A DNA stretch of 64,000 nucleotides from Phyllobates terribilis (taxonomy: Eukaryota). The stretch spans positions 359,476,001-359,540,000 of the forward strand of contig NW_027362761.1 of NCBI RefSeq assembly GCF_046119375.1. Direction: 5' to 3'. This document shows positions 6,284-61,498 of this stretch, piece by piece. The position numbers were made by a program, and so were the translations under genes. Position 1 is the first letter of the stretch, and every line of letters starts with the position of its first letter. The notes under the pieces are model-generated. The model was not told where the DNA came from, searched no databases, and saw only the letters and a list, made by a program, of their open reading frames with translations.

Positions 6284-7777
6284 CAGTACAGACCAAAAGT
6301 TTGGACTCACCTTCTCATTTAGAGATTTTTCTGTATTTTCATGACTATGAAAATTGTACAATTTTCATGACTATGAAAATTGTACATTCACACTGAAGGC
6401 ATAAAAACTATGAATTAACACATGTGGAATTATATACCTAACAAAAAAGTGTGAAACAACTAAAAATATGTCTTATATTCTAGGTTCTTCAAAGTAGCCA
6501 CCTTTTGCTTTGATGACTGCTTTGCACACTCTTGGCATTCTCTTGATGAGTTTCAAGAGGTAGTCACCGGACATGGTTTTCACTTCACCGGTGTGCCCTG
6601 TCAGGTTTAATAAGTGGGAATTCTTGCCTTATAAATTGGGTTGGGACCATCAGTTGTGTTGTGCAGAAGTCAGGTAGATACACAGCTGATAGTCCTACTG
6701 AATAGACTGTTAGAATTTGTATTATGGCAAGAAAAAAGCAGCTAAGTAAAGAAAAACGAGTGGCCATCATTACTTTAAGAAATGAAGGTCAGTCAGTGCG
6801 AAAAATTGGGAAAACTTTGAAAGTGTCCCCAAGTGCAGTTGCATAAACCATCAAGCGCTGCAAAGAAACTGGCTCACATGAGGACCGCCCCAGGAAAGGA
6901 AGACCAAGAGTCACCTCTGCTTCTGAGGATAAGTTTATCCGAGTCACCAGCCTCAGAAATCGCAGGTTAACAGCAGCTCAGATTAGAGACCAGGTCAATG
7001 CCACACAGAGTTCAAGCAGCAGACACATCTCTTCAACATCTGTTAAGAGGAGACTTTGTGCAGCAGGCCTTCATGGTAAAATAGCTGCTAGGAAACCACT
7101 GCTAAGGACAGGCAACAAGCAGAAGAGACTTGTTTGGGCTAAAGAACACAAGGAATGGACATTAAACCAGTGGAAATCTGTGCTTTGGTCTGATGAGTCC
7201 AAATTTGAGATCTTTGGTTCCAACCACCGTGTCTTTGTGCCACGGAGAAAAGGTGAACGGATGGACTCTACATGCCTGGTTCCCACCGTGAAGCATGGAG
7301 GAGGAGGTGTGGGGGTGCTTTGCTGGTGACACTGTTGGGGATTTATTCAAAATTGAAGGCATACTGAACCAGCATGGCTACCACAGCATCTTGCAGCGAC
7401 ATGCTATTCCATCCGGTTTGCGTTTAGTTGGACCATTATTTTTCAACAGGACAATGACCTCAAACACACCTCCAGGCTGTACAAGGGCTATTTGACCAAG
7501 AAGGAGAGTGATGGGGTGCTCCGCCAGATGACCTGGCCTCCACAATCACCAGACCTGAACCCAATCGAGATGGTTTGGGGTGAGCTGGACCGCAGAGTGA
7601 AGGCAAAAGGGCCAACAAGTGCTAAGCATCTCTGGGAACTCCTTCAAGATTGTTGGAAGACCATTTCCGGTGACTACGTCTTGAAGCTCATCAAGAGAAT
7701 GCCAAGAGTGCCATAGTCATGAAAATACAGAAAAATCTTGAAATGAGAAGGTGTATCCAAACTTTTGGTCTGTACTG
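6284..7777 (+). mobile_element. Tc1-like transposon (1494 bp) inserted into CR1 ORF2
   Basis: TIRs CAGTACAGACCAAAAGTTTGGA.../...TCCAAACTTTTGGTCTGTACTG (about 65 bp); TA TSD at 6282-6283 and 7778-7779. Confidence 0.95.
6724..7716 (+). pseudogene. Tc1 DD34E transposase pseudogene
   Basis: MARKKQLSKEKRVAII..., WSDESKF, QQDND and WPPQSPDLNPIE motifs; in-frame TAA near 6844, frameshifts and a truncated C-terminus. Confidence 0.93.
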
Positions 7778-13278: not shown

Positions 13279-14851
13279 CACTGCTCAAAAAAATAAGGGG
13301 AACGCAAACAGAATATAACTCCAAGTAAATCAAACTTCTGTGAAATCAAATAGTCCACTTAGGAAGCAACACTGATTGACAATCAATTTCACATGCTGTT
13401 GTGCAAATGGAATAGACAATAGATGGAAATTATTGGCAATTATCAAGACACCCTCAATAAAGGAGTGGTTCTGCAGGTTGGCACCACAGACCACATCTCA
13501 GTACCAATGCTTTCTGGCTGATGTTTTGGTCACTTTTGAATGTTGGTTGTGCTTTCACACTCGTGGTAGCATGAGACGGACTCTACAACGAACAGAAGTT
13601 GCTCAGGTAGTGCAGCTCATCCAGGATGGCACATCAATGCGAGCTGTGGCAAGAAGGTTTGCCATGTCTGTCAGCGTAGTGTCCAGAGGCTGGAGGCACT
13701 ACCAGGAGACAGGCCAGTACACCAGGAGACGTGGAGGGGGCTGTAGGAGGGCAACAACCCAACAGCAGGACCGCTACCTCCGCCTTTGTGCAAGGAGGAA
13801 CAGGAGGAGAACTGCCAAAGCCCGGCAAAATGACCTCCAGCAGGCCACAAATGTGCATGTGTCTGCACAAACGGTTAGGAACCGACTCCATGAGGGTGGT
13901 ATGAGGGCCCGACATCCACAGATGGGGGTTGTGCTCAGAGCCCAACACCGTGCAGGACGCTAGGCATTTGCCACAGAACACCAGGATTGGCAAAGTCGCC
14001 ACTGGTGCCATTTGTGCTCTTCACAGATGAAAGCAGGTTCACATTGAGCACATGTGACAGAGTCTGGAGACGCTGTGGAGAGCGATCTGCTGCCTGCAAA
14101 ATCCTTCAGCATGACCGGTTTGGCAGCGGGTCAGTAATGGTGTGGGGTGGCATTTCTTTGGAGGGCCGCACAGCCCTCCATGTGCTCGCTAGAGGTAGCC
14201 TGACTGCCATTAGGTACCGAGATGAGATCCTCAGACCCCTTGTGCCCTTGTGAGACCATATGCTGGTGCGGTTGGCCCTGGGTTCCTCCTAATGCAGGAC
14301 AATGCCAGACCCCTCATGTGGCTGGAGTGTGTCAGCAGTTCCTGCAAGATGAAGGCATTGACGCTATGGACTGGCCCGCCCATTTCTCAGACCTGAATCC
14401 GATTGAGCACATCTGGGACATCATGTCTTGCTCCATTCACCGTCACGTTGCACCACAGACAGTCCAGGAGTTGGCGGATGCTTTAGTCCAGGTCTGGGAG
14501 GAGATCCCACAGGAGACCATCCGCAACCTCATCAGGAGCATGCCCAGGCGTTATAGGGAGGTCATACAGGCACGTGGAGGCCACACACAATACTGAGCCT
14601 CATTTTGACTTGTTTTAAGGACATTACATCAAAGTTGGATTAGCCTGTAGTGTGTTTTTCCACTTTAATTTTGGGGGTGACTCCAAATCCAGGCCTCCAT
14701 TGGTTAATAAATTTGATTTCCATTGATGATTTTTGTGTGATTGTTGTCAGCACATTCAACTTTGTACAGAACAAAGTATTCAACGAGAATATTTCATTCA
14801 TTCAGATCTAGGATGTGTTATTTGAGTGTTCCCTTTATTTTTTGAGCAGTG
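13279..14851 (+). mobile_element. Tc1-like transposon, full length (1573 bp), transposase inactivated (13571-14596)
   Basis: TIRs CACTGCTCAAAAAAATAA / TTATTTTTTGAGCAGTG with TA TSDs; peptides LFTDESRF, VMVWGGIS and DWPAHFSDLNPIEHIWD split by a stop and frameshifts. Confidence 0.95.
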
Positions 14852-17138: not shown

Positions 17139-18233
17139 TCACAACGACTTTTTCGACTGTGCACAGTGCATCCCTTCATCGCTCACTAAAGTCCACATGA
17201 TCCACATCTCTGTAGGATTTAGTTTGTGAACAACCATTAGCCCTTTATACAAACATGGATCAAATGGATTAACAGGTTTACGGATACCAAAGGTTTTGAA
17301 ACCAGCATGAAACTGTGGGGTCAGATTCATTTTTTCAAGGCACATGCCAACAAAAACATCATCAATAGGGAAGAGTTCAGTGGTTTCAGCTGTGCTAAGA
17401 AGACGTTGAGTAGTCCTCCTAGACATTAAGTAGCCTCCTCCTCCAGCATATAAAGGATAATGACTTTTATTGTACATTTCCTGTGGAATGAAATATTTTA
17501 CTTTAGTATTTCTAATTGGAATTGCTTTGCTGATTACATCTCCAACAAAAAGATCTTGTTCTGGATCCATCTCCTGAAGAAACTCTACAATATTGTATGT
17601 GTTAATGAAAACATCGTCATCACCTTTCAGGACAAAGCTGCTGTGTGAGCATCCTTCTGTGAACCATCTCAAGAAATGAAGCTCCTTAAGTGTAAGGTTA
17701 AAAAAATTGTCTATAAAATTCCACTGGATGATGTCATTAAACTCTCTGTGTTCATAAGAAATGAGCTGGGCCAGTGACCGAGCTGGTATGCTGGCCTCAG
17801 TCTTGCCGAGCAAGAACACCAGCTTAATCTTCTTGCCCTGAAATTCTTGCTTTTTTCCCCAGGTATTCCTTATAGCAATCCGCCGATCTATATTAATAGG
17901 AAGAGACTTTATGGCCAATAATAAAAAGGTATCTTTTTCACATTGCTTCGGCATGATAAGAGTGGAAAAGTTCCGGCAGTGCCTGTACATCAAGAACAAG
18001 CGGTGCAGTTCAGGAAAGGTTGAGGAAGCATTCAGCATGGATACGTCAGGAGAACACTGGGTGACTCTTTGTAGTGAAGGAGCCCAGAAGACAAATTCTT
18101 GTTTTTGTGTTTCTGCTTTTCTAGGGACAACAGGGTCAACCTCTGTTTTAGTGTCTTTGTAAAAGTAGATAAAAACCCCAAATACTAACAAAGACAAGGT
18201 ATAGAGCACAAGATTTCGCAGCCGAAGAACCAT
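17139..18233 (-). CDS. B3GNT4: N-acetyllactosaminide beta-1,3-N-acetylglucosaminyltransferase 4 (GT31), single main coding exon, 364 aa from ATG 18233
   Basis: Type II membrane anchor ([17 protein letters not shown]); GT31 motifs [35 protein letters not shown] (DxD), YAGGGGY and [11 protein letters not shown]; B3GNT4-type [10 protein letters not shown] and [10 protein letters not shown]...DPCLY...EMWIMWTLV. Recognised from memory of the human protein. The frame is intact. Confidence 0.93.
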
Positions 18234-18258
18234 CTCTGTGCAGAGACTTTGTTTTTTT

Positions 18259-18290
18259 CCTATAAAATGAACAAAATAGAAATGAGTCAA
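18259..18290 (-). promoter_or_regulatory. 3' splice acceptor of the B3GNT4 coding exon
   Basis: Minus strand TTGACTCATTTCTATTTTGTTCATTTTATAG|GAAA, with AG at 18261-18260, 26 nt upstream of the ATG. Confidence 0.7.
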
Positions 18291-20378
18291 GCAAAAAAAC
18301 TATTTCTATAACCAACAAAATTGAATGTCTAAAGAAAAGAACACATAAGCAACCAAAAACTGCAACCATGCAAGCCTCAAACCTCTGTAGTTTTCTGAAT
18401 GACTATCCATTTTTAACAATCTATCAATAGCTCATTGTTAATGGATGTGTGATTTTGCGAATTTAGCGTGGCTTTAGTTTTCAGGTTGCCATGGGTGGCT
18501 GTATCTTAAAGCTCTGTTCACATCTGCTTTGGAGGAATCAGTCATTTTGATGAAAAGAAAAGCAATGCTTGCAGCATAAAATCTGACAGAATTACGCAGG
18601 GCCTACCCGCCATCTTTGGTCACAGCTGTCAAGTGACCAAAGTTTGCTTGGTGTCACTGATACATCACAGCACCATACAAGTGAATGGGGTCATACTGTG
18701 CCAGTTGCAATGCAGTTAGACTTGGTCTAGCTGACTGTTCAAGGTTACACTGCTGGGCACTAAGCTCTCGATGCTGGTTTCCCATGCATAGAGGCATTAC
18801 ACTGGTCCTATATATTTCACTACACCCTATATGATCTCTACTAGAGGCTCCTCTATTACAGTTTACAAGGAGTTGTCTAAAATAAACTACAAGTTAGCTT
18901 TGAAAATCGTATATAGCATAGAAAACATTAATTTCTTTTCAATCAAGAAATCGTGTGTATAACTTTCAAACAAGCCAAGTGTCATCCTATTAAAAATAAA
19001 GGAAAAGCATTACACAATCCTATAACAACCTTCCACAATGTGCCAACTATTTACAGCGCTCATTTAATGTCTGTTGTCATTAAAGGGCCTATTAATACTA
19101 AATTGAAACCAATGTTAGAAATACTAATCAGCTGTTAAGAAAATGTTAAAAATGATTAAAGCTTATTAGGTTACATTTTAAAAAAAAACAAAAACCCACA
19201 CTTGCACTGTAGGAGACAATGTGCAGACATTATGGATTAACCCTCTAATGCTGGAGGCATTTTGGACCTTACAGATCAAACTATCGTTCGCAACTTTCCA
19301 CACTGTGGTCAACTAGCTTTATCCTTTGAAAAGATTAGGCCTTGTGCTCACGGGCATATTGTGGACACAACCATATAAATATAGCACCCTCAGACAACTT
19401 TGGGCCTACATTAGATCTCTAATTTCATGCAAAAAGAAATAGTCTATATAAATAGGTGTGAAAAATTCAAGAAATCTTGCCATTTTTCACTACATACAGG
19501 GGAGAATACTAGGGAGTATAGGGGAGTGTCTTATCAAGGTACACCACTTTCTAAGAAAGATAGCAAGTCGTATTAAAGGACAATAGCACCATGATAAGAA
19601 GAGCCGTCATGGGTCCAGTTAGATCTTTCCATTTGATCACATAACCAGTCTTCCAGCAACTGCTGCTGCCCCGAGTGTATATTCCCCATTGAACTGCTGC
19701 TGCTTGCTCATATGTAGCAATCAAATAGGCAAACCATATTAAAAAAGGCGTTGTCTACCTCAGGGAAAACTTACAGAAAACAGTGCAGCTTGCCAAATAA
19801 TAATAAAAATAATAATAACAGAGTGTAATATACACACTGTAAGGATTCCACTCTGCTACCCAGTCCGAGCGGCCATCTCATGACAGCAGGTATGTGATTA
19901 TATCACACACTGTTAGTATTCAGCAAGCTGTACGGCTTGCCAAAAGTTTACCCTGTGGTGGAAAGTCCCTTTAAAATATTGTTTTTGCCTTTTCTGCTGG
20001 GTATAAGACAGTCCCTGATACAAGTCTCTAGAAAACGCCCCCAATATCACTAAATAAATCTAAAAAAAAATATATAATCTTATTTTTATTAGAAAAAAAT
20101 GCACTTCTACCTTCAGAAATGCATAATTTAGTTAAAAACATTTCTTTTAACCCCCTGCCACATCACTACATTTGGCCCTGAGCTATTCTCAGTTTGTAGT
20201 GCTTAGAGCTGTAATGTGCTTTTGCTGTATCAGCAGGTACTCAGAAAGTTAGTCTGTATAGGCTTGTTGATCCACTAGCATATGTGGGGATAATGTTTGT
20301 AAAGCGCTGCTGAATATGATGGATCTATATAAGCAACACAAAAAAAATTAATTAAATGCGTCATACATGGGTAAAGAC

Positions 20379-24949: not shown

Positions 24950-25088
24950 GTAAAGACCCCTTTTTTATATAAAGTCAGGGGGAAAATTAAATAATTACCT
25001 TGATTTTGACTCGGATTGTGATGCAGCTTTGAGCCACATTAAAAGGCAAATTAAAAACCTAATTAACATTCTGCCATTTGACTGCATA

Positions 25089-26303
25089 TGTAGCACCCTG
25101 AGGATTCGGCTGCTACAGGGGTATTGCACCTCAACCCAGAGGTGTGATATTCCACTCCCGGGTAAGGATGGAGTGTGGATCTGAGCTCGGTAGGCTGCAT
25201 GCACTACACACATCCCATTTCCGAGGAGCAGACCGACGGTACTCCCACTTAGAAATGTGCAGGTACGACCGAGTCTGTTCCTGGCTGGAGTGGGAGGGGG
25301 GTGGTACATCCCAAGTAGTGTAGGGGCAGATAGGGGGAGCAGCCTGGGTAAAGATAGGAGCTCATTGGGTGCTGGTCACCTGAGCTCACACATAGAGGGT
25401 GTATATAAGGTGGGCACCATCAGAGAACAGGGTCAGTCAGCCACAGTCAGTCAGTCTGTGAGTCTTTGCAGAGAAGTCAGAGGAAGAGGAGCAGAGCAGA
25501 CCCAGAGAGAGAGAGAGGAGAAAGCCAGAATGACCCAGAGGGGGAAACAGAAAAGGAACTCCGAGAACCCAAAGTCCATCAGCGGGTGAAGAGTTGGCAT
25601 CAGGGTACCGGAACCCAAGCTGGTGGGGGCAAAAACACACCCTAGCCAGAGACCGGAGGCCGTGGGCAGCGTCTGCCACGGCCACCCACCACATCCACCT
25701 CGAAGGCATACCACGTGGAGGGTCAGGGAACCCAAGGCCAAGGGTCTCCCAACAGAAGGCCCGAGGGAGCTGGACCTGGGTGGATCACTAGTGGGGACGG
25801 CCAGAGAAAGGACAGAAGGAGAGCTCAGGGTCACGCTCCGGACTCGCTTGGGGGTTGGCTGGATCCAGGACCTGGTGGATGCAGCACGGCTCGGGAGGTC
25901 ACTTGAAGCTGGAGTGACCGGAACATCAGCAGTGAGTAAATACCCTAAACTGCACAACCCGATTCTGTCTTCATTTAACACCTATGCTGCACCACCACAA
26001 CCCCCATCCTCTGCACCTGACCCCCTGAGGCTATACCCCACCCGTTGGGGGTTATACCACCAAAAGCTGCACCTACACCATCAGCCTCAGCGGACCCTGC
26101 TGCAGCGGCGGCCATAGTGACCGCAATACAACGGGTGGCGTAGTCGACAATAAAGAACTTAATAACATCTGTAGGACTGCCACATACAACTGAGTTTGAC
26201 ACCCTGGGCACGGACCGGGTCACAGCCACTCGGAAGACTACAACTCCCATCTGATCCGGCTCCGGATATTCCCCCTAAAGAATATGGCCCAGGGGGCGCG
26301 TCA
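25089..26303 (+). repeat. 5' LTR
   Basis: TGTAGCACCC...GGCGCGTCA; TATATAA at 25402-25408; AATAAA at 26149-26154; only two mismatches seen versus the 3' LTR (25531/29237, 26278/29984). Confidence 0.97.
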
Positions 26304-28335
26304 ACTTTGGCGTAGTCGGCAGGATTACGTGCCCGCAACACCCGGGTACTGCGTGCCTGAAGAAAAGTGCGAGTTTACCTCAAAAAGAAGTCTCCTGCCG
26401 GTTCCGGAGGGTCCCCGCCATCGGACCCCATCACAGGTCGATTCCCGCCGGTTGCCCGCCATTAACAGCGTTTTCCCGCCATCTGCAGAGTTTCCCGCCA
26501 CTGGGAAGCGATTCCCGCCATTTCCAAAGGTTTCCCGCCTTGGAAGAGCGGACGCCATTATGGGCGTGCCAGAGGGTGGTGAGAGGCCACCTCCCATCGT
26601 GGGCCAGGACCGAAAATGGCGCCAAAAGTGGAAACCGCCCCCACCAACAGAGACTGTGATGCTAGAGGTGTCTGTCAGCGTGAAAGAACAGCCCCTGGAG
26701 CTGACAGTCACCAAGTGGCCCCGGGACCGCCCTCGAAGGGGGAGGAGACGAAAGGAGAGAACAAAGATGGGTGTCGCTTGGAGCAGTCTAGAGCGAGCGC
26801 ACCCGGAGGCAACAAGCCTGGAGAAGAGTATCGGAGGAGCTTACCCGGAGATGGCGAGAAAGCAGAGCAGCACCGGCCCGCTGGCCAGGAGCCTGCTGGA
26901 GACAACTGAAGGAGAGCAGAGCAGCACCGACCCGTTGGTCAGGAGCCTGCTGGAAACAACGACCCCACTAGGCCTAGTGGAGGTCCTAGCACAGCTTCCC
27001 CGAGACCGGGAGTGTGCACAGACCGCTCTGGAGGGCCTCGCAAGGAGGATGGCCCGGGTGCAGCGAGAGACGTTGGCGGAGTGGAGCCGTGAGATGGCCC
27101 AGCAGACCGAGACCTGTCAGCGGAGCACGCCACCCAAGACGAGGAGACAGACCGCCTCTGAGGATGGCGCGGGAGGACTGAAGGCCGGAGACGGCGCCGA
27201 GAAGGGAGCCGAACGAAAGGAGGCAGGTAAAGGGGACGTCTATACCCCAAACCGGGAAACCGCGTACCTGCCCCAGCTCCCCGTCGCAGAGCCCGAAGTC
27301 TATCCTGCCGTGCCCGTCGCTGCAACGTCACCGCCGCAGACTAGGCCTCAAACGGGAGCCGCGACCCCTGTGACGTCACACGCCTCGACCCCGAGCGTGA
27401 CCAAGCAGGAAGTACCACCAGCCTGGTCGCAAGGCCTAGTACCCCCGGGCGCCGCAATACCAACAGCGCCCCCTACCTCCGCGGAGCCCCCGGCCTGGTC
27501 GCAGGGCCAAGTAGCACAGGGCGCCGCCGTCCTTACGGTGCCCTTTACCTTCCAGATACCCCAGGCCTGGCCGCAAGGCCCGGGCAACCCGGGCGCTAAC
27601 ACCACCGCGCCCATAAGACCAAGAGTGCCGCATCTGGGAGAGGACCTGTACGCCCAGCATACGTGCCCGGATGGGCAGCCATTTATATGGCCACCGGAGT
27701 TTCACCATCCCCGACTCCGGAGAGAGAGACCCCTGGATGAACCCCTGATCCCGGCTCCAAAGCCCGTAAAGAGGATCTCGCCCCCGCTAGCAGAAGCGCA
27801 GTTTGAGTGGGACCCCACTGGAGAAGATCTCATGGGGTTCACTCAAGAGACTCGGGCAGCTGCAGCGGAGCGTGCTGAGTGCTGCCGCCAACAGCTCGAG
27901 GACTTTGAGAGGGAGCGGAGAGAGAGGCGGGTCCGGGAACAGCAAGCTCAAATAAGGAGCGCGGAGCAGAAGAGCCGGGCCAGGAGTGACCCCCGTGCAG
28001 CGCATAGTCCCCGCACCACCGGGACTGTGATAAAGTTTAACATGCAGCATGGGTGGGGCTTCATCCGAGACCACCGCACCCTAGGCGACGTCTTCGTGAC
28101 CAGGAGAGACGTTGAGTCCCACCTACCGGAGGGACACAGAGGTCGTGACCTTTACATCGGGGACGAGGTCACCTTCACCCGGCACAAGTGTGCCAAAGGA
28201 CCCTACGCCCTCCATGTGCATCGCCTGACGGAGGAAGAGCTGCGGTGTGAGGAGGAAGAACAAGAGGACCCGGACGGGTCTGAAACTAGAGTTAGAGGTA
28301 ACCATAAAGAAAGAGCAGGAGGACGCCGTCGCTAA
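26284..28335 (+). CDS. 683-aa element-encoded protein: Pro-rich/low-complexity body, predicted helical segments, C-terminal cold-shock domain (about aa 578-648, nt 28015-28227)
   Basis: Uninterrupted ORF with strong Kozak context (AAT ATG G). C-terminal TTGTVIKFNMQHGWGFIRDHRTLGDVFVTRRDV...RDLYIGDEVTFTRHKCAKGPYALHV matches the CSD pattern (RNP1 GWGFI, RNP2 DVFV). The true start codon is uncertain. Confidence 0.8.
   Translation: MAQGARQLWRSRQDYVPATPGYCVPEEKCEFTSKRSLLPVPEGPRHRTPSQVDSRRLPAINSVFPPSAEFPATGKRFPPFPKVSRLGRADAIMGVPEGGERPPPIVGQDRKWRQKWKPPPPTETVMLEVSVSVKEQPLELTVTKWPRDRPRRGRRRKERTKMGVAWSSLERAHPEATSLEKSIGGAYPEMARKQSSTGPLARSLLETTEGEQSSTDPLVRSLLETTTPLGLVEVLAQLPRDRECAQTALEGLARRMARVQRETLAEWSREMAQQTETCQRSTPPKTRRQTASEDGAGGLKAGDGAEKGAERKEAGKGDVYTPNRETAYLPQLPVAEPEVYPAVPVAATSPPQTRPQTGAATPVTSHASTPSVTKQEVPPAWSQGLVPPGAAIPTAPPTSAEPPAWSQGQVAQGAAVLTVPFTFQIPQAWPQGPGNPGANTTAPIRPRVPHLGEDLYAQHTCPDGQPFIWPPEFHHPRLRRERPLDEPLIPAPKPVKRISPPLAEAQFEWDPTGEDLMGFTQETRAAAAERAECCRQQLEDFERERRERRVREQQAQIRSAEQKSRARSDPRAAHSPRTTGTVIKFNMQHGWGFIRDHRTLGDVFVTRRDVESHLPEGHRGRDLYIGDEVTFTRHKCAKGPYALHVHRLTEEELRCEEEEQEDPDGSETRVRGNHKERAGGRRR
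26308..26326 (+). promoter_or_regulatory. Primer-binding site, tRNA-Ser
   Basis: TGGCGTAGTCGGCAGGATT is the 19-nt reverse complement of the vertebrate tRNA-Ser 3' end (AATCCTGCCGACTACG-CCA), 4 nt after the LTR. Confidence 0.93.
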
Positions 28336-28785
28336 GTACAGCGAAGCAGAAGCTGTATATAGTTGCCAGTCGGGGCACCGTGAACTGAAACTGTTACTGT
28401 TGCTAAATATAGTCCCCGTTGGGACCAGCAAGTGTGAACTGTTACCCGTATTTCCCTAAATCCCACTGGCCGAGGACTGAGAACGGTCATTCCTCCCCAA
28501 TACCTGGCCGAGGACTGAGAGCGGCCACCTTCCCTTTTTGTATATAGTTGCGCGTCCTAAAGCGCCCCTACCGGTTTTATAGGAAAACCATTTTTTCTAG
28601 AGAGACTGTCGCACTTTACCCGGTCACACGTTGCACAGTGACCGGAGGAGGAGCCAGAGGCGACGAGAATGTTTTATATTGATATATATATATAATGTTG
28701 TTTTAAATGTTTTATATGTTTATGCAAAAATTTGTATGTTTTTGGTGTTTTGTTCTTACAGCCCGAGGGCGTGCTGTGATTTACC

Positions 28786-28794
28786 AGGGGGGAA
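28786..28794 (+). promoter_or_regulatory. Polypurine tract
   Basis: AGGGGGGAA immediately before the 3' LTR TG at 28795. Confidence 0.85.
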
Positions 28795-30009
28795 TGTAGC
28801 ACCCTGAGGATTCGGCTGCTACAGGGGTATTGCACCTCAACCCAGAGGTGTGATATTCCACTCCCGGGTAAGGATGGAGTGTGGATCTGAGCTCGGTAGG
28901 CTGCATGCACTACACACATCCCATTTCCGAGGAGCAGACCGACGGTACTCCCACTTAGAAATGTGCAGGTACGACCGAGTCTGTTCCTGGCTGGAGTGGG
29001 AGGGGGGTGGTACATCCCAAGTAGTGTAGGGGCAGATAGGGGGAGCAGCCTGGGTAAAGATAGGAGCTCATTGGGTGCTGGTCACCTGAGCTCACACATA
29101 GAGGGTGTATATAAGGTGGGCACCATCAGAGAACAGGGTCAGTCAGCCACAGTCAGTCAGTCTGTGAGTCTTTGCAGAGAAGTCAGAGGAAGAGGAGCAG
29201 AGCAGACCCAGAGAGAGAGAGAGGAGAAAGCCAGAAAGACCCAGAGGGGGAAACAGAAAAGGAACTCCGAGAACCCAAAGTCCATCAGCGGGTGAAGAGT
29301 TGGCATCAGGGTACCGGAACCCAAGCTGGTGGGGGCAAAAACACACCCTAGCCAGAGACCGGAGGCCGTGGGCAGCGTCTGCCACGGCCACCCACCACAT
29401 CCACCTCGAAGGCATACCACGTGGAGGGTCAGGGAACCCAAGGCCAAGGGTCTCCCAACAGAAGGCCCGAGGGAGCTGGACCTGGGTGGATCACTAGTGG
29501 GGACGGCCAGAGAAAGGACAGAAGGAGAGCTCAGGGTCACGCTCCGGACTCGCTTGGGGGTTGGCTGGATCCAGGACCTGGTGGATGCAGCACGGCTCGG
29601 GAGGTCACTTGAAGCTGGAGTGACCGGAACATCAGCAGTGAGTAAATACCCTAAACTGCACAACCCGATTCTGTCTTCATTTAACACCTATGCTGCACCA
29701 CCACAACCCCCATCCTCTGCACCTGACCCCCTGAGGCTATACCCCACCCGTTGGGGGTTATACCACCAAAAGCTGCACCTACACCATCAGCCTCAGCGGA
29801 CCCTGCTGCAGCGGCGGCCATAGTGACCGCAATACAACGGGTGGCGTAGTCGACAATAAAGAACTTAATAACATCTGTAGGACTGCCACATACAACTGAG
29901 TTTGACACCCTGGGCACGGACCGGGTCACAGCCACTCGGAAGACTACAACTCCCATCTGATCCGGCTCCGGATATTCCCCCTAGAGAATATGGCCCAGGG
30001 GGCGCGTCA
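28795..30009 (+). repeat. 3' LTR
   Basis: Direct repeat of 25089-26303 at offset 3706; the ORF-track entries are duplicated at the same offset. Confidence 0.97.
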
Positions 30010-30734
30010 CATACATACCTCTTAAGCTAATGCCAGTTTCTCATGGCTTTCCCCTTGTCTGGACTATAAAGTGCAATTCCGGTAATCTGCAACAGAACAC
30101 AATGAACCTTGGTGAATAGTAATTAAATAGTTCTTAAGGTTTTCTTAAAGTTACTGGACTGCAATATTTTGTAAAACAGAGGTCTATATGAAATGCATAG
30201 GTTTAGTCAATTAATGTGCACAGTATAAATACTATTCCCTAAAATGAATAAGGATTCATGCCAATTTCTCTATAATGACAAGCATATTACAATATGAACA
30301 TGCTTTGTATATAAAAAGGACAAGTACAGATAATGGCAAAATACTCACATTTCATAGAAAAAACACTCCAAACATTTGATGCTAACATTATAGGCATGAT
30401 TGACTTTATTTTCTTGTGGAAACCCGGAACAAAATGACAACGAAACAACCCAATTAGGCCACATTCAGATTTAGTAATTTTTCACGTATGCAGAACATGG
30501 CATGAGTGTCAGTGTTTTGTTTTTGTTTTATTTGGTCACTTTTTACCATCATTGTTTAATCAGTGATAGTCACATATGAAAAAATTAAATTACAACACTT
30601 CTCTTATGCATTGCAATCTTAATCACCAACTGCCCACTGATGGTATCCAGATGCTGTCTGTGATTTACATGGACCCATAGACTTGTACTGGTAATAGTGC
30701 TTCATGACGCAGATCAAAAACAGACATGCCTCAG

Positions 30735-41146: not shown

Positions 41147-41214
<68 letters not shown>

Positions 41215-41215
41215 A
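41145..41215. repeat. (TA)n microsatellite
   Basis: About 70 bp of TA repeat between the two Tc1 elements. Confidence 0.97.
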
Positions 41216-42771
41216 CACTGCTCAAAAAAATAAAGGGTGCACTCAGATAACACATCCTAGATCTGAATGAATGAAATATTCTCATTGAATAATTTGTTCT
41301 GTACAAAGTTGAATGTGCTGACAACAAAATCACACAAAAATCATCAATGGAAATCAAATTTATTAACCAATGGAGGCCTGGATTTGGAGTCACCCCCAAA
41401 ATTAAAGTGGAAAAACACACTACAGGCTGATCCAACTTTGATGTAATGTCCTTAAAACAAGTCAAAATGAGGCCTCCACGGGCCTGTATGACCTCCCTAC
41501 AACACCTGGGCATGCTCCTGATGAGGTTGCGGATTGTCTCCTGTGGGATCTCCTGGACTAAAGCATCCGCCAACTCCCGGACAGTGCGTGGTGCAACGTA
41601 ACGTTGATGGATGGAGCGAGACATGATGTCCCAGATGTGCTCAATCGGATTCAGGTCTGGGGAATGGGCGGGCCAGTCCATAGCTTCAATGCCTTCATCT
41701 TGCAGGAACTGCTGACACACTCCAGCCACATGAGGTCTGGCATTGTCCTGCATTAGGAGGAACCCAGGGCCAAACGCACCAGCATATGGTCTCACAAGGG
41801 GTCTGAGGATCTCATCTCGGTACCTAATGGCAGTCAGGCTACCTCTGGCGAGCATATGGAGGGCTGTGTGGCCTTCCAAAGAAATGCCACCCCACACCAT
41901 TACTGACCCACTGCCAAATCGGTCATGCTGAAGGATGTTGCAGGCAGCAGATCACTCTCCACGGCGTCTCCAGACTCTGTCACGTCTGTCACATGTGCTC
42001 AGTGTGAACCGGCTTTCATCTGTGAAGAGCACAGGGCGCCAGTGGCGACTTTGCCAATCCTGGAGTTCTGTGGCAAATGCCAAGCATTCTGCACGGTGTT
42101 GGGCTGTGAGCACAACCCCCATCTGTGGACGTTGGGCCCTCATACCACCCTCATGGAGTCAGTTTCTAACCCGGTGTGCAGACACATGCACATTTGTGCC
42201 CTACTGGAGGTCATTTTGCAGGGCTCTGGCAGTTCTCCTCCTGTTCCTCCTTGCACAAATTCAGAGGTAGCGGTCCTGTTGCTGGGTTGTTGCCCTCCTA
42301 CGGCCCCACTCCACGTCTCCTGGTGTACTGGCCTGTCTCCTGGTAGCGCCTCCAGCCTCTGCACACTACGCTGACAGATGCAGCAAACCTTCTTGCCACA
42401 GCTCGCATTGATGTGCCATCCTGGATGAGCTGCACTATCTGAGCAACTTCTGTGGGTTGTAGAGTCCATCTCATGCTACCACAAATGTGAAAGCACAACC
42501 AACATTCAAAAGTGACCAAAACATCAGCCAGAAAGCATTGGTACCGAGATGTGGTCTGTGGTCCCCACCTGCAGAACCACTCCTTTATTGAGGGTGTCTT
42601 GATAATTGCCAATAATTTCCATCTATTGTCTATTCCATTTGCACAACAGCATGTGAAATTGATTGTCAATCAGTGTTGCTTCCTAAGTGGACAGTTTGAT
42701 TTCACAGAAGTTTGATTCACTTGGAGTTATATTCTGTTGTTTAAGTGTTCCCTTTATTTTTTTGAGCAGTG
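41216..42771 (-). mobile_element. Tc1-like transposon, full length (1556 bp), same family as 13279-14851, inactivated
   Basis: TIR CACTGCTCAAAAAAATAAAGGG at both ends with TA TSDs; LFTDESRF and DWPAHSPDLNPIEHIWD in broken frames. Confidence 0.95.
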
Positions 42772-48439: not shown

Positions 48440-50080
48440 GGTTATTGGGAATTTGGATTAGAATCAGAGAAGGGGATGAATGGAAAACAGTGTTCAAGAC
48501 CCCGAAAGGGCATTTCGAGAGTCTGGTTATGCCTTTCGGTTTGACCAACGCACCTGCCTCGGTGTTTCAGCATTTCATAAATGATATTTTTCATCATTTG
48601 GTGGGGAGGTTTGTGGTGGTCTATCTGTATATTTTGGTTTACTCACCTGATTTTCAGACACATCGGGGGCATGTTAAAACAGGTGTTCCAGATTTTAAGG
48701 GATAAACTATATGATAAACTAGAAAAATGTGTTTTAGCCGTTCAGGAGGTGCAGTTTTTGGGGTACTTGTTGTCATCTTTGGGTTTTCGGATGGATCCGG
48801 AGAAGATCTATGCAGTCCTTGATTGGGACCATCCTGAGAACCTGAAGGCTCTTCCATGTTTTCTGGGCTTTACTAATTTTTAACGAAAATTCATCCAAAA
48901 TTATTCGGTAATCACGAAACCCCCTGCTAACATGACCAGGAAGGGATCCGATTTTTCCAAATGGTCGAAGGCCTTCCTCCAGGCTTTTTCTTTCTTAAAA
49001 AATTGTTTTGCCACGGCACCTATACTCAGTCAACCAGATGTTTCCCAGCCCTTTATTGTGGAATTTGATGCGTTGGATGTCGGGGTTGGGGCTGTGTTGT
49101 CTCAGGGTCAGTCACCTGGTAAATGGCGTCCATGCACTTTCTTTTCTAAAAAATTGTCTTCTGCTGAGAGAAATTATGATGTGGGTAATAGGGAAGTTTT
49201 GGCGATCAAATTGGAGTTCGGAGAATGGCAACATAGGTTGGAGGGGGCTGTCCATCCTATTACTGTTATTACTGACCATAAGAACCTGTCATATCTTCAA
49301 TCAGCTAAACGTCTCAACCCTAGGCAAGCCAGATGGTCCCTGTTTTTTTACCAAGTTCAATTTTGTTGTCACTTTTTGTCCAGGGTTCAAAAATGTCAAG
49401 GCTGATGCTTTGTCCCGGAACTTCCCTGGTGGCGGTGACCATGAGAACCCTGCCCCGATATTACAGAAAGGGGTAGTCATTTCTGCATTGCTTCCTGAGC
49501 TGGAGGGTGAGGTGTTGGAGGTCCAGGGGGAAGCCCTTGCCTCCTGCCTTTCAGAAAGCTTATTTGTACCATCCAATCTGCGCCGCAAAGTAATTAAGGA
49601 ACATCACAACTCTGTGCTTGCTGGTCATCCAGGTGGTAAAGCAACCGTGGACCTCCACTCTCGTCGTTTTTGGTGGCCAGGATTGCATACCCATCGGTCT
49701 GGTACTCTTCTTCCGCTACCTATCCCTAGCAGACCATGGACACACTTTTCCATAGATTTTATTACTGACCTACCGGTTTCTGCAGGCAAAACAGTGATTT
49801 TGGTGGTTGTAGATAGGTTCAGTAAAATGATTCACTTTGTCGCATTGCCTGCACTTCCAGATGCCAAGACACTTGCTCAGGTGTTCATAAATGAGATTGT
49901 GAAGCTTCACGCGGTTCCCTCTGATGTGGTGTTAGATTGGGGGACCCAGCTTGTCTCCAAATTCTCGAGGGCATTCTGTTCTCGACTGGGGGTGCAGCTG
50001 TCCTTTCCCTCTGCCTTTCACCCTCAGTCGAATGGACAGACCGAATGAGTCAATCAGAATTTGGAGACCTACCTCAAGTA
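48440..50080 (+). pseudogene. Gypsy (sushi/Tf2-like) pol fragment: RT-RNase H-integrase, frameshifted
   Basis: [88 protein letters not shown] and FHPQSNGQTE. No flanking LTR seen. Confidence 0.93.
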
Positions 50081-54181: not shown

Positions 54182-55400
54182 CTAGGGAGGGACAACAGCC
54201 TGAAGGACCTTCCTTCCGAAGGCTAAATCTCCAACAGACATTAGATCTAGTCTGTGATGAAAGGGTAGTTATTCGGCAACTCGTGAAATTAACTTAAAAA
54301 TAGCCTTTCTGTTGAAAAAAAATTAAAAAACATGAGACCATAGTGCAAATAAAAGCGTACAGAGGCTTACGCGTTTCGGATACGTAGATCCTTACTCATA
54401 GCATAGATTAGATCTAGTCTGTAGTGTTTGGAGAAAGTATGAATCGAGGACCACGGAGCAGCTCTGCAAATCTGTTAGATGGATGCGCTGGCTTTTTCAG
54501 CCCAGGAGACAGATATCGCCCTTGTAGAATGGGCCTCGAGCTTGGCCGGAGGAGGCAGACCTAGGATCTGGTAAGCCTCCGTAATTGCCCTCTTAATCCA
54601 GTTGGCTATTGTGGATTTTGCTGCTTTCTTTTCGTTTGTAACCTCTTTCCTTCCTTCTTCGGTTTCCTGAAGATAGTGCAGTACTATTCTCCGAACATCC
54701 AGAGTGTGGCATTCCATTTCTTTGCCTTTTGGGTTGTCACAAAATGATGGAAGAATTATCTCCTGAGATCTGTGGAAACTGGAGACCACCTTAGGTAGAA
54801 ATGAAGGGTCAAGTCGGAAAATTAGACGATTTTCCAGGATTCTCAGGTAGGGTTCGTTGACCGAAAGGGCCTGTAGTTCACACACTCTTCTGGCTGTAGT
54901 TATTGCAACCAGGAAAGCCGTTTTCCAGGTCAGCCTGTCCAGTCTTATGGCTGATAAGGGATCAAAGAGTGGAAAAGTTAACCCCTTCAGAACAATGTTA
55001 AGGTCCCAGGGGGGAATCAAGTCTGTTACTCTAGGGTGGATGCGGGTGGCTGCTGTCAAATCTCTTCACCCACTGATGTTCAGCTAACTTTGATCAAAGT
55101 ATGAGCTTAACGCTGCTACCTGGTCCTTAAGAGTACTAGGTTTGAGACCTTTGTCCAGACCTTCTGATAGAAAATCTAGAATATGTGCCATCTGTGGGTG
55201 AGTGGGTTCACACCACTTTAAGAAGGTCTTCCAGATCTTATGGTAAATGGTGTTCGTTACAGGTTTTCTGCTCTTCTGGAGAGTTTTGATGACTTTCTCT
55301 GATAGGCCTTTTGTTTTTAATATCAGGAATTCAGAAGCCAGGGAGCTAGGTGTAGTCTCTCGGGATCCGGATGGTGAATTGGTCCCTGGAGAAGGGGATC
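54182..55400 (-). pseudogene. DIRS tyrosine recombinase
   Basis: PPWDLNIVL, AITTARRVCELQAL (catalytic R), AHSTRAIS (HxxR), HTFSKHYRLD (catalytic Y) and FGRKVLQAVVPP*; frameshifted and interrupted at 54256-54406. Confidence 0.93.
54256..54406 (-). mobile_element. 151-bp insertion with a 16-bp TSD and a hammerhead-like motif
   Basis: ATTAGATCTAGTCTGT at 54240-54255 and 54407-54422; removing the insert and one repeat restores the YR frame. Confidence 0.8.
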
Positions 55401-58400
55401 TCTGATGGGAGGAAGGATTAGAGGGCTCTCCACACTGGTTAACCAGGGCTGTGGAGTCGGTAAGCCACAGTTGCGACTCCGACTCCTGGATTTTATCAGG
55501 TTCCGACTCAGACTCCTTCATAAATGGCCAATTCGTAACAATAAATTTACTGTTGTAAAATATTAACATTGTGCTTATTCAGTTTCTCACCATCATATAA
55601 GTAATCAGACCACTTAGAGCAAAAACTATATTTATTAGAATACAATTAGAATATAGCAAATAACTTTTATAAACTTTTCTAAACTCTTGTAAGTAAATAT
55701 GCAATAAACACTGTTATGCAGTTCATAAGAAGAAATCTATAAATTTGTCCTCAGAAAAAGTATTGCCTGTGTCAGATCCTCCTTCATGGATGCCCTCAAA
55801 TCTGATCTAATTATTTTGAGAGCAGAGAACAACCTCTCTACACTAACTTGGTTTGGTGGCAAAGCAGTAACCACTTGGGCAACATCTCTGACAATGTCAG
55901 GATACAGAGGAATCGCTTGTTGCACGGTTATTTTTGATGAACGGTCAAATTTCTCAATTTCTTTTAGTGCACATGAAAAATTCTGCTGAAATGTACTGGC
56001 TGTGTTCTTTGATGGGGATGACTCTTCTTCTATGCGGGAACGCTTTGCGCGGTCCTTGTGATCCAAATATTTTTTGAAATTAAATTCTTCATCAGTTGAT
56101 GATGAGGGTGAAGATGTGGCAGGACGACCAAATTCTTCTTGTTCCTCCTGACTGTTCTGCAACCCTTTCATCCTTACTGCTATTTCAAACAGAGCTTCTT
56201 TTCCTTTAGTTAGCTGTTGATCATCTAGAAGAATCCGATGCATTGGGTCTACATAAACAGCTGCCAAAAGAATGTTATTTTGTAATAGTAGCTCCTCTCT
56301 CCGTTTCATTGATGTAGCAATGCCACTTGCAATTAACCCTCCTCTTTGGGACCGGCGAAACATCAGGTTCTTCCACTCCTTTAAGAAAATACCTGGAGTT
56401 AAGTCCTCTGCTTGTAATTTTTTAGTCACTGTAAATGGGTGCTCTAGCAATTTTTCCAGCTCAGTCACCTGATTCCACTGACTTTCATTTAGCGTCAGTT
56501 GAGGGTTAGCCATGTCTACAAGAAAGGTTTTCAGTTCAACCAAGCGCTGAATCATTAAGTACTGCCCCATCGTGTGGCTTGATCAATAATTACCCCTTTT
56601 CCAGCACGTCTCTTCAAAATTGAGTCAACTTTAGGGGTTCTGGCAACAGTAGCCAATTTTCTCACCTTGCTAATCAGTGCAGCAGCATGTCCTTCTTGCA
56701 GACTGTCTCTTATAGCCAGCTGTAACGTATGCACAACACAGCGCATGTGATGAATGAAAGAACGTATTGACACAATTTCAACAAGATCATCTAAACTATC
56801 ATGTTGCTGTTCATCTGAAGCAACTTCAGTTTGCTCCTCAGTTACAATACTGTGTTCCTCTATTTCAAACATTTCTGTGTCTGTGGACCCAGAATGTTCT
56901 TCTAGCTGCTGGTCACCATCATTACTCTCATTCATTAGCTTAATAGTACTTATCATATTTGAAGCATTGTCAGTTACGACAGAAAGAACTTGCTCTTTTT
57001 GAAGTTCATAGTCTTGCAGAACCTTTTCCACCAAGACCTGGAGAAACTCACTGGTGTGATGAGCTTTGGTGTCTTTTACTGCCAATGTCTTGGTAACTAT
57101 TTCATGTTTGTCACAAACAAATCGGACATTGATGGCAAAATAGTTCACTCTAACGTGTGCAGGCATCCATTTTAAGAAACAGAAAGCGTCCCTTGAGAGT
57201 TTTTTTTAAGTTCTTCCTTTTGTTTAAAAGCTTCTTCGATTACTAATTTTCTAATACTCTCTCTCTCCAGAGAAACACCAAGCTTGCGGGCCATTTCCCC
57301 ATTCAGACACATAAAAGCTGGTCGTGAAAATAATGAAATAGGCACACTATCCTTTACAACAAGCTCTATGATCTGTTTTTTAAATGTATCTACTGTCATT
57401 GTCACAGTAACTTTGTCACTGACAAAATATCTTGCAACTGATGGCTACAAAGTTCTCTGCTCCTTTGTTTGGCTGGAAGAGCTGGGCACTGGTTTATTGG
57501 TTTGGATGCAGTCTTTCTCATCCACTGCTTTCAGTACTTCTGGATGAAAGCGCTGTAAATGTCTCTTTAGATTAGAAGCTCTGGTAGGAGCATTTTTATC
57601 TTTGCCTGAATATGCACTGATCTTGGCTTCACAGCATTTGTTTTCGTCTGGATCATTTGTCATACACTGACAGACATAATGTTTTCTATCTTGAGTGATG
57701 GTGAAATGTTCAAAATACAGCGGATTTAATGTGACGCTTCTTTGACATTCTCAGGTTTTTAATTCTGCATTTACAATCCAAATAACAATGGTTTTTCCTA
57801 AAAACAATTGTACAAAATTATTGCCAGGTCATACAACTGATATAGTGGTCAGTAATACTGTTATTCCTCATGTACTCACAGTTAACTGATGCAGAGTTTG
57901 TTGAAAGGATAATACTTCTTACAGTTTTCCTCTTCTGAGTAGCAGCTGTGAGATGCTTGGAAGACGCACACCTAGTAAACATCTAGTCTAGAGGAGGAGC
58001 TTTACTACTAAGAATTTGCAACACATTTTCACTTTCAGTTTCATACATTGTAAGTAGGGGGGTTGGGGCAGCTTGAGGTTAACCAAGTATAAGATTAGAT
58101 AAGGGCAGTGGAGAACAGTGACACACAAGAAGTAAGAAATGTCTGTCTCCAGCAGAACTGCTTATAACTGTTGTTCATAGTTTGATAGAGCATATATATA
58201 TTTGAGTAACATTTATAAAATTCATATGAAAGTTCAATTATGAAATATTAATACATTTTTTTTTAAAGCTGGAGTCGGAGTCGGTACATTTCTACCGACT
58301 CCGACTCCAACCAAAACTAACTCCGACTCCACGACTCCGACTCCACAGCCCTGTGGTTAACGTCCCGAACCAACTTCTTTTTGGCCAGAGAGGAGCCACT

Positions 58401-60120: not shown

Positions 60121-60129
60121 GATGTTGAT

Positions 60130-61498
60130 TTTGGGAGAGAAAAAGATTCTTGCCTCCTCTTCCTTTTGGGTAGCTCCATCATCCTGTTTTCCCTTTACCC
60201 CTATATTGAGGGGTCTGCTCCTGGGAGTGATGAAATAGGCCTTATCCTTACATTTCTAGGTTCCGGGAGGGCCTTCTTCTTGTCCGAGGCTCTCTCGAGA
60301 AGATCATCATCTAGGGCTGGCCCGAACATGTATTTCCCTTTAAAGGGGATGGAACACAATTTCATTTTGTATGCCACATCACCGCTCCATAGGGCCCATC
60401 TTACGGAGTTTGATAACCCAGATGCTCTTGCCGCCACTCTCCCCGATTCTGCAGAAGCATCTGCTAAAAATCAGGAAGCTTTCTGTAGAAGCGGTAGGGA
60501 TGTTAAGATGTCTTCTCTGGGGGTGCCCAAGACTAGGTGTTCCTCCAGTTGATCTAGCTATGCCCACAAAGACTGCGTTGGTGTTTAATAGTGCTGCCGA
60601 TGTCTCCCAGTACTTTCTGAGTAGTCCCTCCATTTTGCGTTCCAAGGGGTCTTTTAATTGAGAGGAATCTTCAAAGGGCAATGTGGTTTTCTTTGCCCCT
60701 CGTGCAATCTGGATATCCACTCTTGGAACTTCAGACTAGCATTCTGCAGTCTCATTGTCTACAGGAAATCTATCCTTTAACTCCGTAGGGGTATTCAACC
60801 TCTTTTCCGGAGATTCCCATTCCTCTAGGACTAAGTCTCTAATACTCTGGTGTATAGGGAACACAAATTTCTTCCTGGAATGCAGCCCCCCAAACATCTT
60901 ATCCTGTACTGTCTGGGGAACCTTTTCTTCCTCGACCTCCATAGTTCTCCTTACTGCCATGAGGAGTTCCTCCATATATCTGATGGAAAGTAATATCTTT
61001 CTCGCTGGGAGTTATCAGGAGTTGGACTCAGTTCACCTTCCTCTGGAAGATCTTCCGAGATATATATCTCATCTTGAGAGTCTTCCTCCCCTCCCTCTGG
61101 CGGGCTGATCTTCCTTTTTTTTGGCTGCTGAGGGAGTAGATGTAGTATCCTGAGTAAGTGAGGGCGTGGGGACAGCGACTGAGACTAAGGAGGATTTGAT
61201 CTCTTGACGTACAATCCCCTTTATCTCTTCCATTAAGGAAGGTTGTTGATGCCTGATAATTTTCTCCGTACAGTCCTTGCATAGGGGTTTTCTATGGGAG
61301 GATAGCTTTTTTGTACAAATGGGACATTTGCGTGACGGTTTAGCTTAGTCTCCAGATGCAGGTTCCTTGTCCCCCTACAAGAGAGGGGAGAAGGAAAAGG
61401 GAGCTATAATCACTATTACCTGCATCTGAGAGATGGACTACCAGTGCCATACTTACTGGGACCGGACCGGCGCTGGGAGAAGATGCTTCAACAGACAT
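60130..61498 (-). pseudogene. DIRS ORF1 (gag-like), with a predicted 82-nt intron at 61375-61456
   Basis: ATG 61498; CPIC...LCKDC zinc-finger-like motif; FPIHQSIRDLVLEEWESPEK and LPFEDSSQLKDPLERKME remnants; stops and frameshifts. Confidence 0.8.

Follow-up and report, generated by a model that had tools for sequence, protein, structure and literature searches.

A window of 64,000 nucleotides from the genome of the poison frog Phyllobates terribilis (assembly GCF_046119375.1, contig NW_027362761.1, positions 359,476,001 to 359,540,000) contains a long terminal repeat (LTR) retroelement whose only gene ends in a cold-shock domain (CSD). The locus raises the question of how an element without enzymes of its own is copied, and why it keeps a gene of this kind. 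The element has 4921 bp (window positions 25089-30009, plus strand), with an interior of 2491 bp, and encloses just one long open reading frame (ORF). The comparisons described below indicate that it probably depends on an autonomous Ty3/Gypsy family, hereafter the helper, and that the CSD is conserved by selection across a very large family of copies.

The element and its gene

The element presents two LTRs with TG...CA ends, a short target-site duplication, a primer binding site (PBS) as well as a polypurine tract (PPT), and has no pol gene, which are the features of a non-autonomous Ty3/Gypsy LTR retrotransposon (Table 1). Since the LTRs differ at only two of 1215 positions, the insertion appears to be recent; at a rate of 2-3e-9 per site and year, its age would be a few hundred thousand years. 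Nine loci carrying the pattern complementary to the PBS were scanned with ARAGORN, and the pattern ended a tRNA-Ser gene at two of them, a tRNA-Ala gene at one and no gene at six.

The intact ORF of 683 codons reported in the first-pass annotation is present; its start falls within the 5' LTR, and 459 bp separate its end from the 3' LTR. The CSD (PF00313) is the sole Pfam family in it, with an E-value of 7.6e-8 and 32.6 bits against a gathering cut-off of 27. As had been read from the letters alone, the ORF has no enzymatic domain or CCHC knuckle: no reverse transcriptase (RT), RNase H (RH), integrase (INT), protease (PR) or gag family was found by Pfam down to an E-value of 1, and regular expressions detected no CCHC pattern and no RT- or protease-type motif in the protein. 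The AlphaFold2 model of aa 93-683 presents two long helices and the CSD only, with a predicted local distance difference test score (pLDDT) below 50 in 401 of 591 residues. In the model of aa 500-655 (mean pLDDT 79.8), a helix of 45 residues precedes a five-strand barrel of the oligonucleotide-binding (OB) type, and 37 aa remain between the CSD and the C-terminus. The fold is close to that of the bacterial cold-shock proteins (Csp) CspA and CspE (template modelling (TM) score, normalised by target, 0.89-0.90) and of YBX1 (TM 0.79), and the top 40 or more Foldseek rows are all CSDs. The matches in a viral structure library were CSDs of phages and giant viruses alone, with 22-27% identity, and in the ESM Atlas aa 490-683 matched only generic CSD clusters, under 0.9.

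The first-pass annotation had proposed that the CSD could replace the nucleocapsid zinc knuckle. In the sense of a modified Gag, this reading was rejected, as the protein has no capsid fold, no knuckle and no similarity to the helper Gag, and the helper retains a CCHC knuckle of its own. Every match listed by Foldseek for the model of aa 93-683 is a CSD and none a capsid, although the low-confidence parts could hide a very degenerate Gag remnant. Helix 1 matched nothing in Pfam, the PDB, the ESM Atlas (aa 190-300) or the helper Gag, and its alignment to the latter by hhalign had a probability of 0.1%.

Selection on the coding sequence

The window copy was compared with 15 of 24 candidate copies, the other nine, all of family B, having failed the nucleotide filter. 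The ratio of non-synonymous to synonymous change (dN/dS) was 0.78 for aa 1-92, 0.65 for aa 93-189, 0.35 for aa 190-290, 0.51 for aa 291-480, 0.17 for aa 481-575, 0.12 for the CSD and 0.40 for the tail; constraint is clear from codon 190 onward. The linker (aa 291-480) tolerates in-frame indels, with 37 in-frame against 15 frameshifting ones over these 15 copies, and no frameshifting indel falls in the CSD. Among 12 young copies, the coding frame of the CSD had a dN/dS of 0.11; of the other frames, four gave 1.9-3.5 and the reverse one with common third positions gave 0.23. Non-coding controls in the plus frames gave 0.85-1.00 (LTR) and 0.97-1.20 (3' untranslated region). Six pairs sharing no copy ranged from 0.05 to 0.15 for the CSD, with a pooled value of 0.09 (187 synonymous and 85 non-synonymous differences). 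In addition, the CSD of family D, which has about 40% CSD identity, gave 0.14 over nine copies. The codon comparisons thus show purifying selection on the CSD and the two predicted helices, which is strong on the CSD (dN/dS about 0.1). The first-pass annotation had named broken frames and a ratio near 1 as contrary evidence; the opposite was found, and most young copies are intact.

The same comparisons bear on the length of the protein, which is probably shorter than the 683 codons first assigned to it. Of 14 family-A copies, 6 have in frame the ATG at 26284, which sits in the LTR end, and all 14 have M93 in frame (26560, giving 591 aa). The motif at M190 (26851, giving 494 aa) is present in 21 of the 26 copies compared from families A and B. 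Codons 1-92 align at the DNA level with the non-coding leader of the helper and show no frame-specific constraint; in the leader segment (codons 15-92), which is probably non-coding, dN/dS is 0.74 in frame against 0.73-0.97 in the other five frames. Because codons 1-92 are unconstrained and leader-like, and M93 and M190 are kept where M1 often is not, M1 was rejected as the true start and the protein likely begins at M93 or M190. The open frame of codons 1-92 is probably explained by T-poor sequence, the ORF having only 13.5% T.

The autonomous helper

The exact junction between LTR and PBS has 32,079 occurrences in the genome. Every fifth of the first 100 matches, all in the first 25 Mb of contig C1 and thus not a random sample, was assigned to a class. 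Of these 20 loci, 7 hold gag-pol elements and 12 hold CSD elements, of which 10 have the domain complete and 2 carry internal deletions; 1 locus is unassigned. The share of CSD elements at the exact junction is thus 12/20, with a 95% interval of 36-81%. With a looser primer-site pattern, 20 loci gave 16 gag-pol elements, 3 CSD elements and 1 unassigned. The gag-pol element has an interior of about 5.9 kb, with a PNMA/Retrotrans_gag-like Gag containing zf-CCHC and the domains PR-RT-RH-INT in Gypsy order; none of its ORFs of at least 200 aa has the length of an env gene.

Passenger and helper have in common the LTR start, the 3' third of the LTR, an identical PBS, a leader of about 250 nt, the PPT and 4-bp target duplications, the last in most full-length copies of both. 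In either class, most full LTR pairs have an identity of 98-100%. A tree of the LTR end, PBS and first leader bases was built from 46 rows (25 passenger, 21 helper), and the two classes interleave in it: there are seven label changes, at least two of them forced by strongly supported branches, eight helpers are nested among passengers, and passenger monophyly is rejected by the approximately unbiased (AU) test (p 3e-60). Judging by these shared signals, an abundant autonomous Ty3/Gypsy family has the element as its non-autonomous passenger. The interleaved tree indicates that passenger and helper have repeatedly exchanged LTR-end and leader sequence, as co-packaging followed by template switching would give.

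The cold-shock domain and its relatives

The nucleic acid-binding surface was compared in 25 element-type CSDs. In the first ribonucleoprotein motif (RNP1), an aromatic residue is present at position 591 in 22 of the 25 and F593 in 24; in the second (RNP2), position 604 is F or Y in all of them. All 25 also have a new aromatic residue at position 641, where Y-box proteins have Glu. From these residues the surface reads as remodelled rather than abandoned, in a domain with about 32% identity to Y-box/YBX1.

Searches with PF00313 and with a distant copy recovered subfamilies A, B and E on the same LTR type, two further families, C and D, and four more diverged CSD types. Family C is short, with the ATG directly at the first CSD strand and an ORF of about 100 aa; it has 17 exact pattern matches, 8 of which are open through the domain, and one copy has an interior of 1417 bp between LTRs 92% identical. 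Family D has LTRs of about 1030 bp with different ends, the same tRNA-Ser PBS, an interior of 2.6 kb, LTR pairs 97-99.7% identical and 495 exact LTR-PBS junctions; the rest of its protein has no visible kinship with that of the passenger (for example G000:C8:301163200-301172200).

Three adjacent CSD genes, distant members of the element clade that keep the RNP2 His, were also observed (G000:C4:791.48-791.52 Mb). One is an intact ORF of 251 aa (PF00313, 42.4 bits), the other two are frameshifted or truncated, and no LTR pair was found flanking the cluster. It is possible that these genes are an intermediate towards Y-box proteins, or an old remnant. Three more diverged CSD ORFs fall in the same clade; one of them lies between 188-bp repeats (93% identical, with a TG start and a purine tract) into which a LINE-like RT ORF is inserted.

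In the CSD tree, 29 element-type rows stand on one side of a branch and 32 other CSD rows on the other, with support 96/98, in an alignment of 72-73 columns whose rows were picked by profile, so that long-branch attraction is possible. The Y-box rows are one host pseudogene and three unnamed Y-box-like database proteins, and neither Lin28 nor CARHSP1 has a row; the four CSDE1 rows of the first tree represent two distinct sequences, and a second tree dropped 16 near-duplicate or chimeric rows. Then, the phylogeny that the first-pass annotation had called for groups the element CSDs, and leaves both YBX and CSDE1 as candidate donors. The element CSD profile scored 53.7 bits for YBX1, 52.5 for YBX2, 49.7 for Escherichia coli CspA, 25 for CARHSP1, 23 for CSDE1 and 22-25 for Lin28. 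The loop after strand 3 has 19-20 residues in the elements and 19 in Y-box-like proteins, against 12-16 in most bacterial and protist domains and 14 in CSDE1. Of the initial label Y-box/Lin28-like, the first half stands, Y-box being the best vertebrate match; kinship with Lin28, which has a CSD and two CCHC knuckles, was rejected at 25 bits against 54 for YBX1 and with no CCHC in the protein.

The host YBX genes are split by introns, and only exon pieces and one pseudogene were recovered. Retrocopies of host CSD mRNAs are also present in the genome; among them are an interrupted processed copy and a decayed processed copy, which we take, by recognition of the sequence, to derive from CSDE1 and from a Y-box gene, respectively. 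Y-box mRNA is abundant in amphibian oocytes. Because such an mRNA is at hand in the oocyte, and this genome has retrocopies of host CSD mRNAs, Y-box mRNA seems the likeliest donor, although unproven.

Abundance and distribution

All 150 scored genome matches, the best of 37,435 candidates, have 99-100% identity to the CSD. One exact 20-mer of the CSD has 13,324 occurrences in the 10.6-Gb genome, and its reversed-pattern control has none. Since this 20-mer is present in only 7 of 12 sampled young copies, about 20,000 copies is a fair estimate, and 13,324 a minimum. If full length, more than 13,000 copies amount to at least 65 Mb, or 0.6% of the genome. A frame of at least 494 aa is open in 133 of the 150 best-matching copies, a hand count on copies selected for CSD identity. 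Four contig sets, two of them presumed to be RNA, cover the element and the neighbouring repeats deeply, which is to be read as presence only.

The nearest proteins in the database carry the label Phyllobates terribilis. Among the best 150 rows of a profile search over 1.84 billion representatives were four more single-domain matches (94-141 bits), two labelled Anomaloglossus baeobatrachus and one each Ranitomeya variabilis and R. imitator; the single domain that came next scored 47 bits. A word-indexed search added two further poison-frog gene models and no other animal. The Ranitomeya and Anomaloglossus relatives are protein records, and the absence from other animals is weak evidence, since ORFs of transposable elements are often masked from annotation. 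Database gene models named R3HCC1, UVS.2-like and Harbinger-type transposase include an element-type CSD, as annotation chimeras or by exonisation.

Proposed mechanism and alternatives

On balance, we consider it probable that the passenger borrows the Gag and Pol of the helper, and that the selected CSD protein binds its own RNA and raises the chance of that RNA being copied. Passenger and helper RNAs would be packaged and reverse transcribed together, with tRNA-Ser as primer and helper particles hosting the copying; co-packaging is suggested because PBS, PPT, leader and duplication length are common to both and LTR-end and leader sequence was repeatedly exchanged. The protein would then be made and would bind single-stranded RNA through its remodelled aromatic surface. 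It would act chiefly on the RNA that encodes it, which it would coat or chaperone as Y-box proteins do, stabilising it and shifting it from translation towards packaging. Such an action in cis is argued for because a dN/dS of about 0.1 in a selfish multi-copy gene needs a benefit to the encoding copy over gene-less copies. A single capture, with Y-box mRNA as the most likely source, would have brought in the domain before the split of the poison-frog families.

Several observations weigh against parts of this proposal. The low dN/dS values are simple counting estimates on related sequences, and the pairs compared share ancestry and are not independent. The preference for action in cis is an evolutionary argument rather than a result, and RNA binding, translation and expression are putative. 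The exchange with the helper could also stem from gene conversion between genomic copies. Two of the 12 sampled passengers are internally deleted with LTRs still 98.9-99.8% identical, a pattern compatible both with dead-on-arrival deletions and with mobilisation in the absence of the gene. The strand-1 Trp position (584) is mostly Lys and the RNP2 His (606) is kept in only 2 of the 25 element-type CSDs; we take these to be the residues that stack on RNA in Y-box and Csp domains, the roles of the positions being assumed from the Csp and YBX1 structures. One family-D CSD is, moreover, net acidic. Because of these replacements and of this acidic domain, the ligand may differ from that of Y-box and Csp proteins. 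A single capture from a Y-box donor is weakened by support for element monophyly that falls to 82/99 when the set is trimmed and the model simpler, by CspA scoring just 4 bits under YBX1, and by AU tests that reject neither the grouping of elements with YBX (p 0.34) nor that with CSDE1 (p 0.41). Finally, a complex prediction of the helper Gag (230 aa) with the helix and CSD of the passenger (156 aa), in which alignments were not used, scored 0.01, which is no evidence either way.

Among the alternatives, a protein that acts in trans on the host survives best, and we regard it as unlikely but credible. As a mimic or competitor of Y-box proteins, it would loosen germline RNA masking or small-RNA silencing, and passenger and helper would both escape. 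A Y-box-like domain with an altered binding surface would suit such a role, the two conserved helices and the short motif could recruit host factors, and the helper families also acquired passenger LTR-end sequence, as partners in one compartment would. Gypsy elements are, in addition, highly expressed in ova of another poison frog, according to the accessible text of that report (PMC6278860). Copies without the gene could nevertheless exploit a benefit purely in trans, but the long frame is open in 133 of the 150 best-matching copies, and 10 of the 12 sampled passengers retain the whole domain; the host target is hypothetical.

Still less probable, in our judgement, is a role on the DNA side, with the protein as a nucleocapsid-like chaperone of primer annealing and strand transfer in helper particles, or as a binder of single-stranded DNA or promoters that drives the LTR. 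CSDs such as those of Csp and YBX1 bind single-stranded DNA as well as RNA and melt secondary structure, and solved complexes of YBX1 with single-stranded DNA and of Csp with dT are among the fold matches of the CSD model. This role is opposed by the lack of a capsid domain for entry into particles and by the CCHC knuckle that the helper Gag already has.

That the gene is kept for the benefit of the frog, as a domesticated or mutualistic RNA-binding protein, we hold to be quite improbable. Young non-autonomous LTR families with host roles exist, as the available text on the Gag of zebrafish Bhikhari describes (PMC12067270), and the cluster of three distant CSD genes without a recognisable LTR pair could be read in the same way. 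Two of those three genes are, on the other hand, frameshifted or truncated, and the measure of selection compares subfamilies that are dispersed and have transposed recently, and hence follows replicating lineages. A neutral fragment, captured by chance and open as a by-product of the low T content of the ORF, is hardly conceivable and was rejected, given an in-frame dN/dS of about 0.1 in the CSD against 1.9-3.5 in four of the five other frames and about 1 in non-coding controls, and the same result in a second family.

Returning to the passenger that acts on its own RNA, we tentatively suggest, as a wider proposal that is possible and rather more doubtful than the mechanism itself, a satellite-like class of vertebrate LTR elements. 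Its members would have given up Gag and Pol for one Y-box-derived RNA-binding effector that captures helper packaging or defeats germline silencing. The class would be as old as the poison-frog radiation or older, with several families on different LTRs, one of them with a CSD-only gene of 100 residues; it may outnumber its helper and would contribute to genome gigantism. The usual view of non-autonomous LTR elements is that they have either no gene under selection or a Gag. In this frog, an element that parasitises another parasite appears to retain a host-type RNA-binding domain, with more than 13,000 copies and a strength of selection equal to that seen in ordinary genes. This points to an unrecognised step in retrotransposition, one that decides which RNA is packaged or how the germline's control of RNA is escaped, and, for the very large poison-frog genomes, to a contributor that pol-based repeat classifiers would overlook.

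Comparison with known systems

The first-pass annotation knew of no characterised LTR family built in this way. The capture of a CSD by LTR elements has been published for bird endogenous retroviruses (ERVs), of which 46 among more than 470,000, classed by RT, carry pfam00313 through repeated independent captures (He et al. 2025, PMC12287698). The accessible text of that paper suggests an adaptive role, and two of its rows have E-values of about 1e-24 to 1e-25, that is, close to host domains (PMC12287698). As far as that text describes them, the bird elements resemble the passenger in having a CSD within an LTR retroelement, and differ in being retroviral. The passenger is Gypsy-dependent, has neither gag nor pol, and has a strongly diverged CSD (E 8e-8), for which purifying selection was measured, as the core of its sole gene, in more than 13,000 copies that form one clade across families. 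It also lacks the gag-pol(-env) backbone of a retrovirus, having no pol, with a partner whose Gag and integrase domains are of Gypsy type. The architecture itself is unmatched in the literature searched: no gag-less, pol-less LTR family based on a CSD was found in full-text articles, subscription journals, Repbase and Dfam lying outside the search.

Other pol-less LTR elements with a single ORF are Xenopus 1a11 and Xretpos (PMC4585706) and the retroviral zebrafish Bhikhari and chicken ENS-1/ERNI, with a capsid fold predicted for Bhikhari and ERNI (PMC12067270). In the available text of these reports, they share with the passenger the order LTR-ORF-LTR, the lack of pol, a sole protein (500-650 aa) that combines coiled helices with disordered parts, and young multi-copy families. 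Their ORF is, however, a Gag or Gag-like and that text does not contain the term cold shock, whereas the ORF of the passenger has no capsid fold or knuckle. Partnerships between autonomous and non-autonomous elements are described in plants, such as SNRE/SARE of soybean, Dasheng/RIRE2 of rice, BARE2, LARDs and TRIMs (PMC4079214). In these, as in the frog, the passenger shares termini, PBS and PPT with its helper, reaches a high copy number and exchanges LTR sequence with it. Unlike the frog element, LARDs and TRIMs have non-coding interiors, BARE2 lacks part of its gene set, and none is named in the accessible text as having a selected host-type RNA-binding gene (PMC4079214). A massive Gypsy content with expression in ova is described in papers on the repeats of poison frogs and anurans, in whose available main text the term cold shock does not appear (PMC6278860, PMC12822217).

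Among proteins, the closest are YBX1, YBX2/FRGY2 and bacterial Csp, which have the same fold (TM 0.79-0.90), the best profile scores and, as in the element, three RNP aromatic residues, with a loop of Y-box length. They differ from the element CSD in overall sequence (about 32% identity), in the strand-1 Trp and RNP2 His that it has lost and the aromatic 641 that it has gained, and in the place of the domain, which in the element is C-terminal behind a long helix. Y-box proteins carry a long charged tail of alternating basic and acidic stretches. The short C-terminus of the element protein leaves no room for such a tail.

Other features of the element and its surroundings

The coordinates of the features are given in Table 1. 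In the hairpin after the PBS, two-sided changes were present in none of five pairs, and it is thus not claimed as a structure.

Table 1. Features of the passenger element, in window coordinates.
Feature	Position	Strand	Basis or remark
Left target-site duplication, CATA	25085..25088	.	Sequence
5' LTR, 1215 bp, TG...CA ends	25089..26303	+	2 mismatches vs 3' LTR
TATA-like box in 5' LTR	near 25402	+	Putative function
AATAAA in 5' LTR	near 26149	+	Putative function
ATG-to-stop ORF, 683 codons	26284..28335	+	Open reading frame present as reported
PBS, complementary to tRNA-Ser 3' end, 4 nt past LTR	26308..26326	+	Sequence
5' leader homologous to helper leader; short hairpin after PBS, CCCGCCA repeats	26327..26559	+	DNA alignment
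Predicted helix 1 (aa 242-281), conserved	27007..27126	+	AlphaFold2, pLDDT about 60-70; dN/dS 0.33-0.35 for aa 190-290
Pro/Ala-rich linker (aa 291-480), predicted disordered	27154..27723	+	32% P+A; pLDDT < 50
Conserved short motif (aa 506-519), then predicted long charged helix 2 (aa 521-568)	27781..27987	+	Alignment, AlphaFold2, dN/dS 0.17 for aa 481-575
CSD (aa 579-646)	28018..28221	+	Pfam, predicted OB fold, dN/dS 0.09-0.12
PPT abutting 3' LTR	28786..28794	+	Sequence; same GGGGGGAA core in helper copies
3' LTR, 1215 bp	28795..30009	+	LTR pair comparison
Right target-site duplication, CATA	30010..30013	.	Sequence

A second primer-site-like motif lies within the LTR (26136-26148), adjoining the AATAAA, and is common to the helper LTR. 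A splice-acceptor-like pyrimidine tract ending in CAG (28740-28761) stands just upstream of the PPT and is retained in four passenger copies from different subfamilies, and a donor-like GTGAGT is present in the LTR near 25930; splicing is only a candidate from these motifs.

A host coding exon of a galactosyltransferase/Fringe-like gene (17139-18299, minus strand; PF01762, E 1e-45) is located about 7 kb from the element, which may lie in an upstream intron or the promoter region of that gene. Fragments of other mobile elements are found in the window at 48884-50048, 54475-60552 and 55737-57205 (all on the minus strand), 6847-7329, 13376-13963 and 41169-41951; by recognition, we take them to be a second Gypsy-like pol, a DIRS-like RT/recombinase element with a hAT-like insert, and Tc1-like transposases. 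Elsewhere in the genome, 39 evenly spaced matches to the primer-site pattern on one strand (G000:C1:438.8-440.7 Mb) probably represent a large tandem array.

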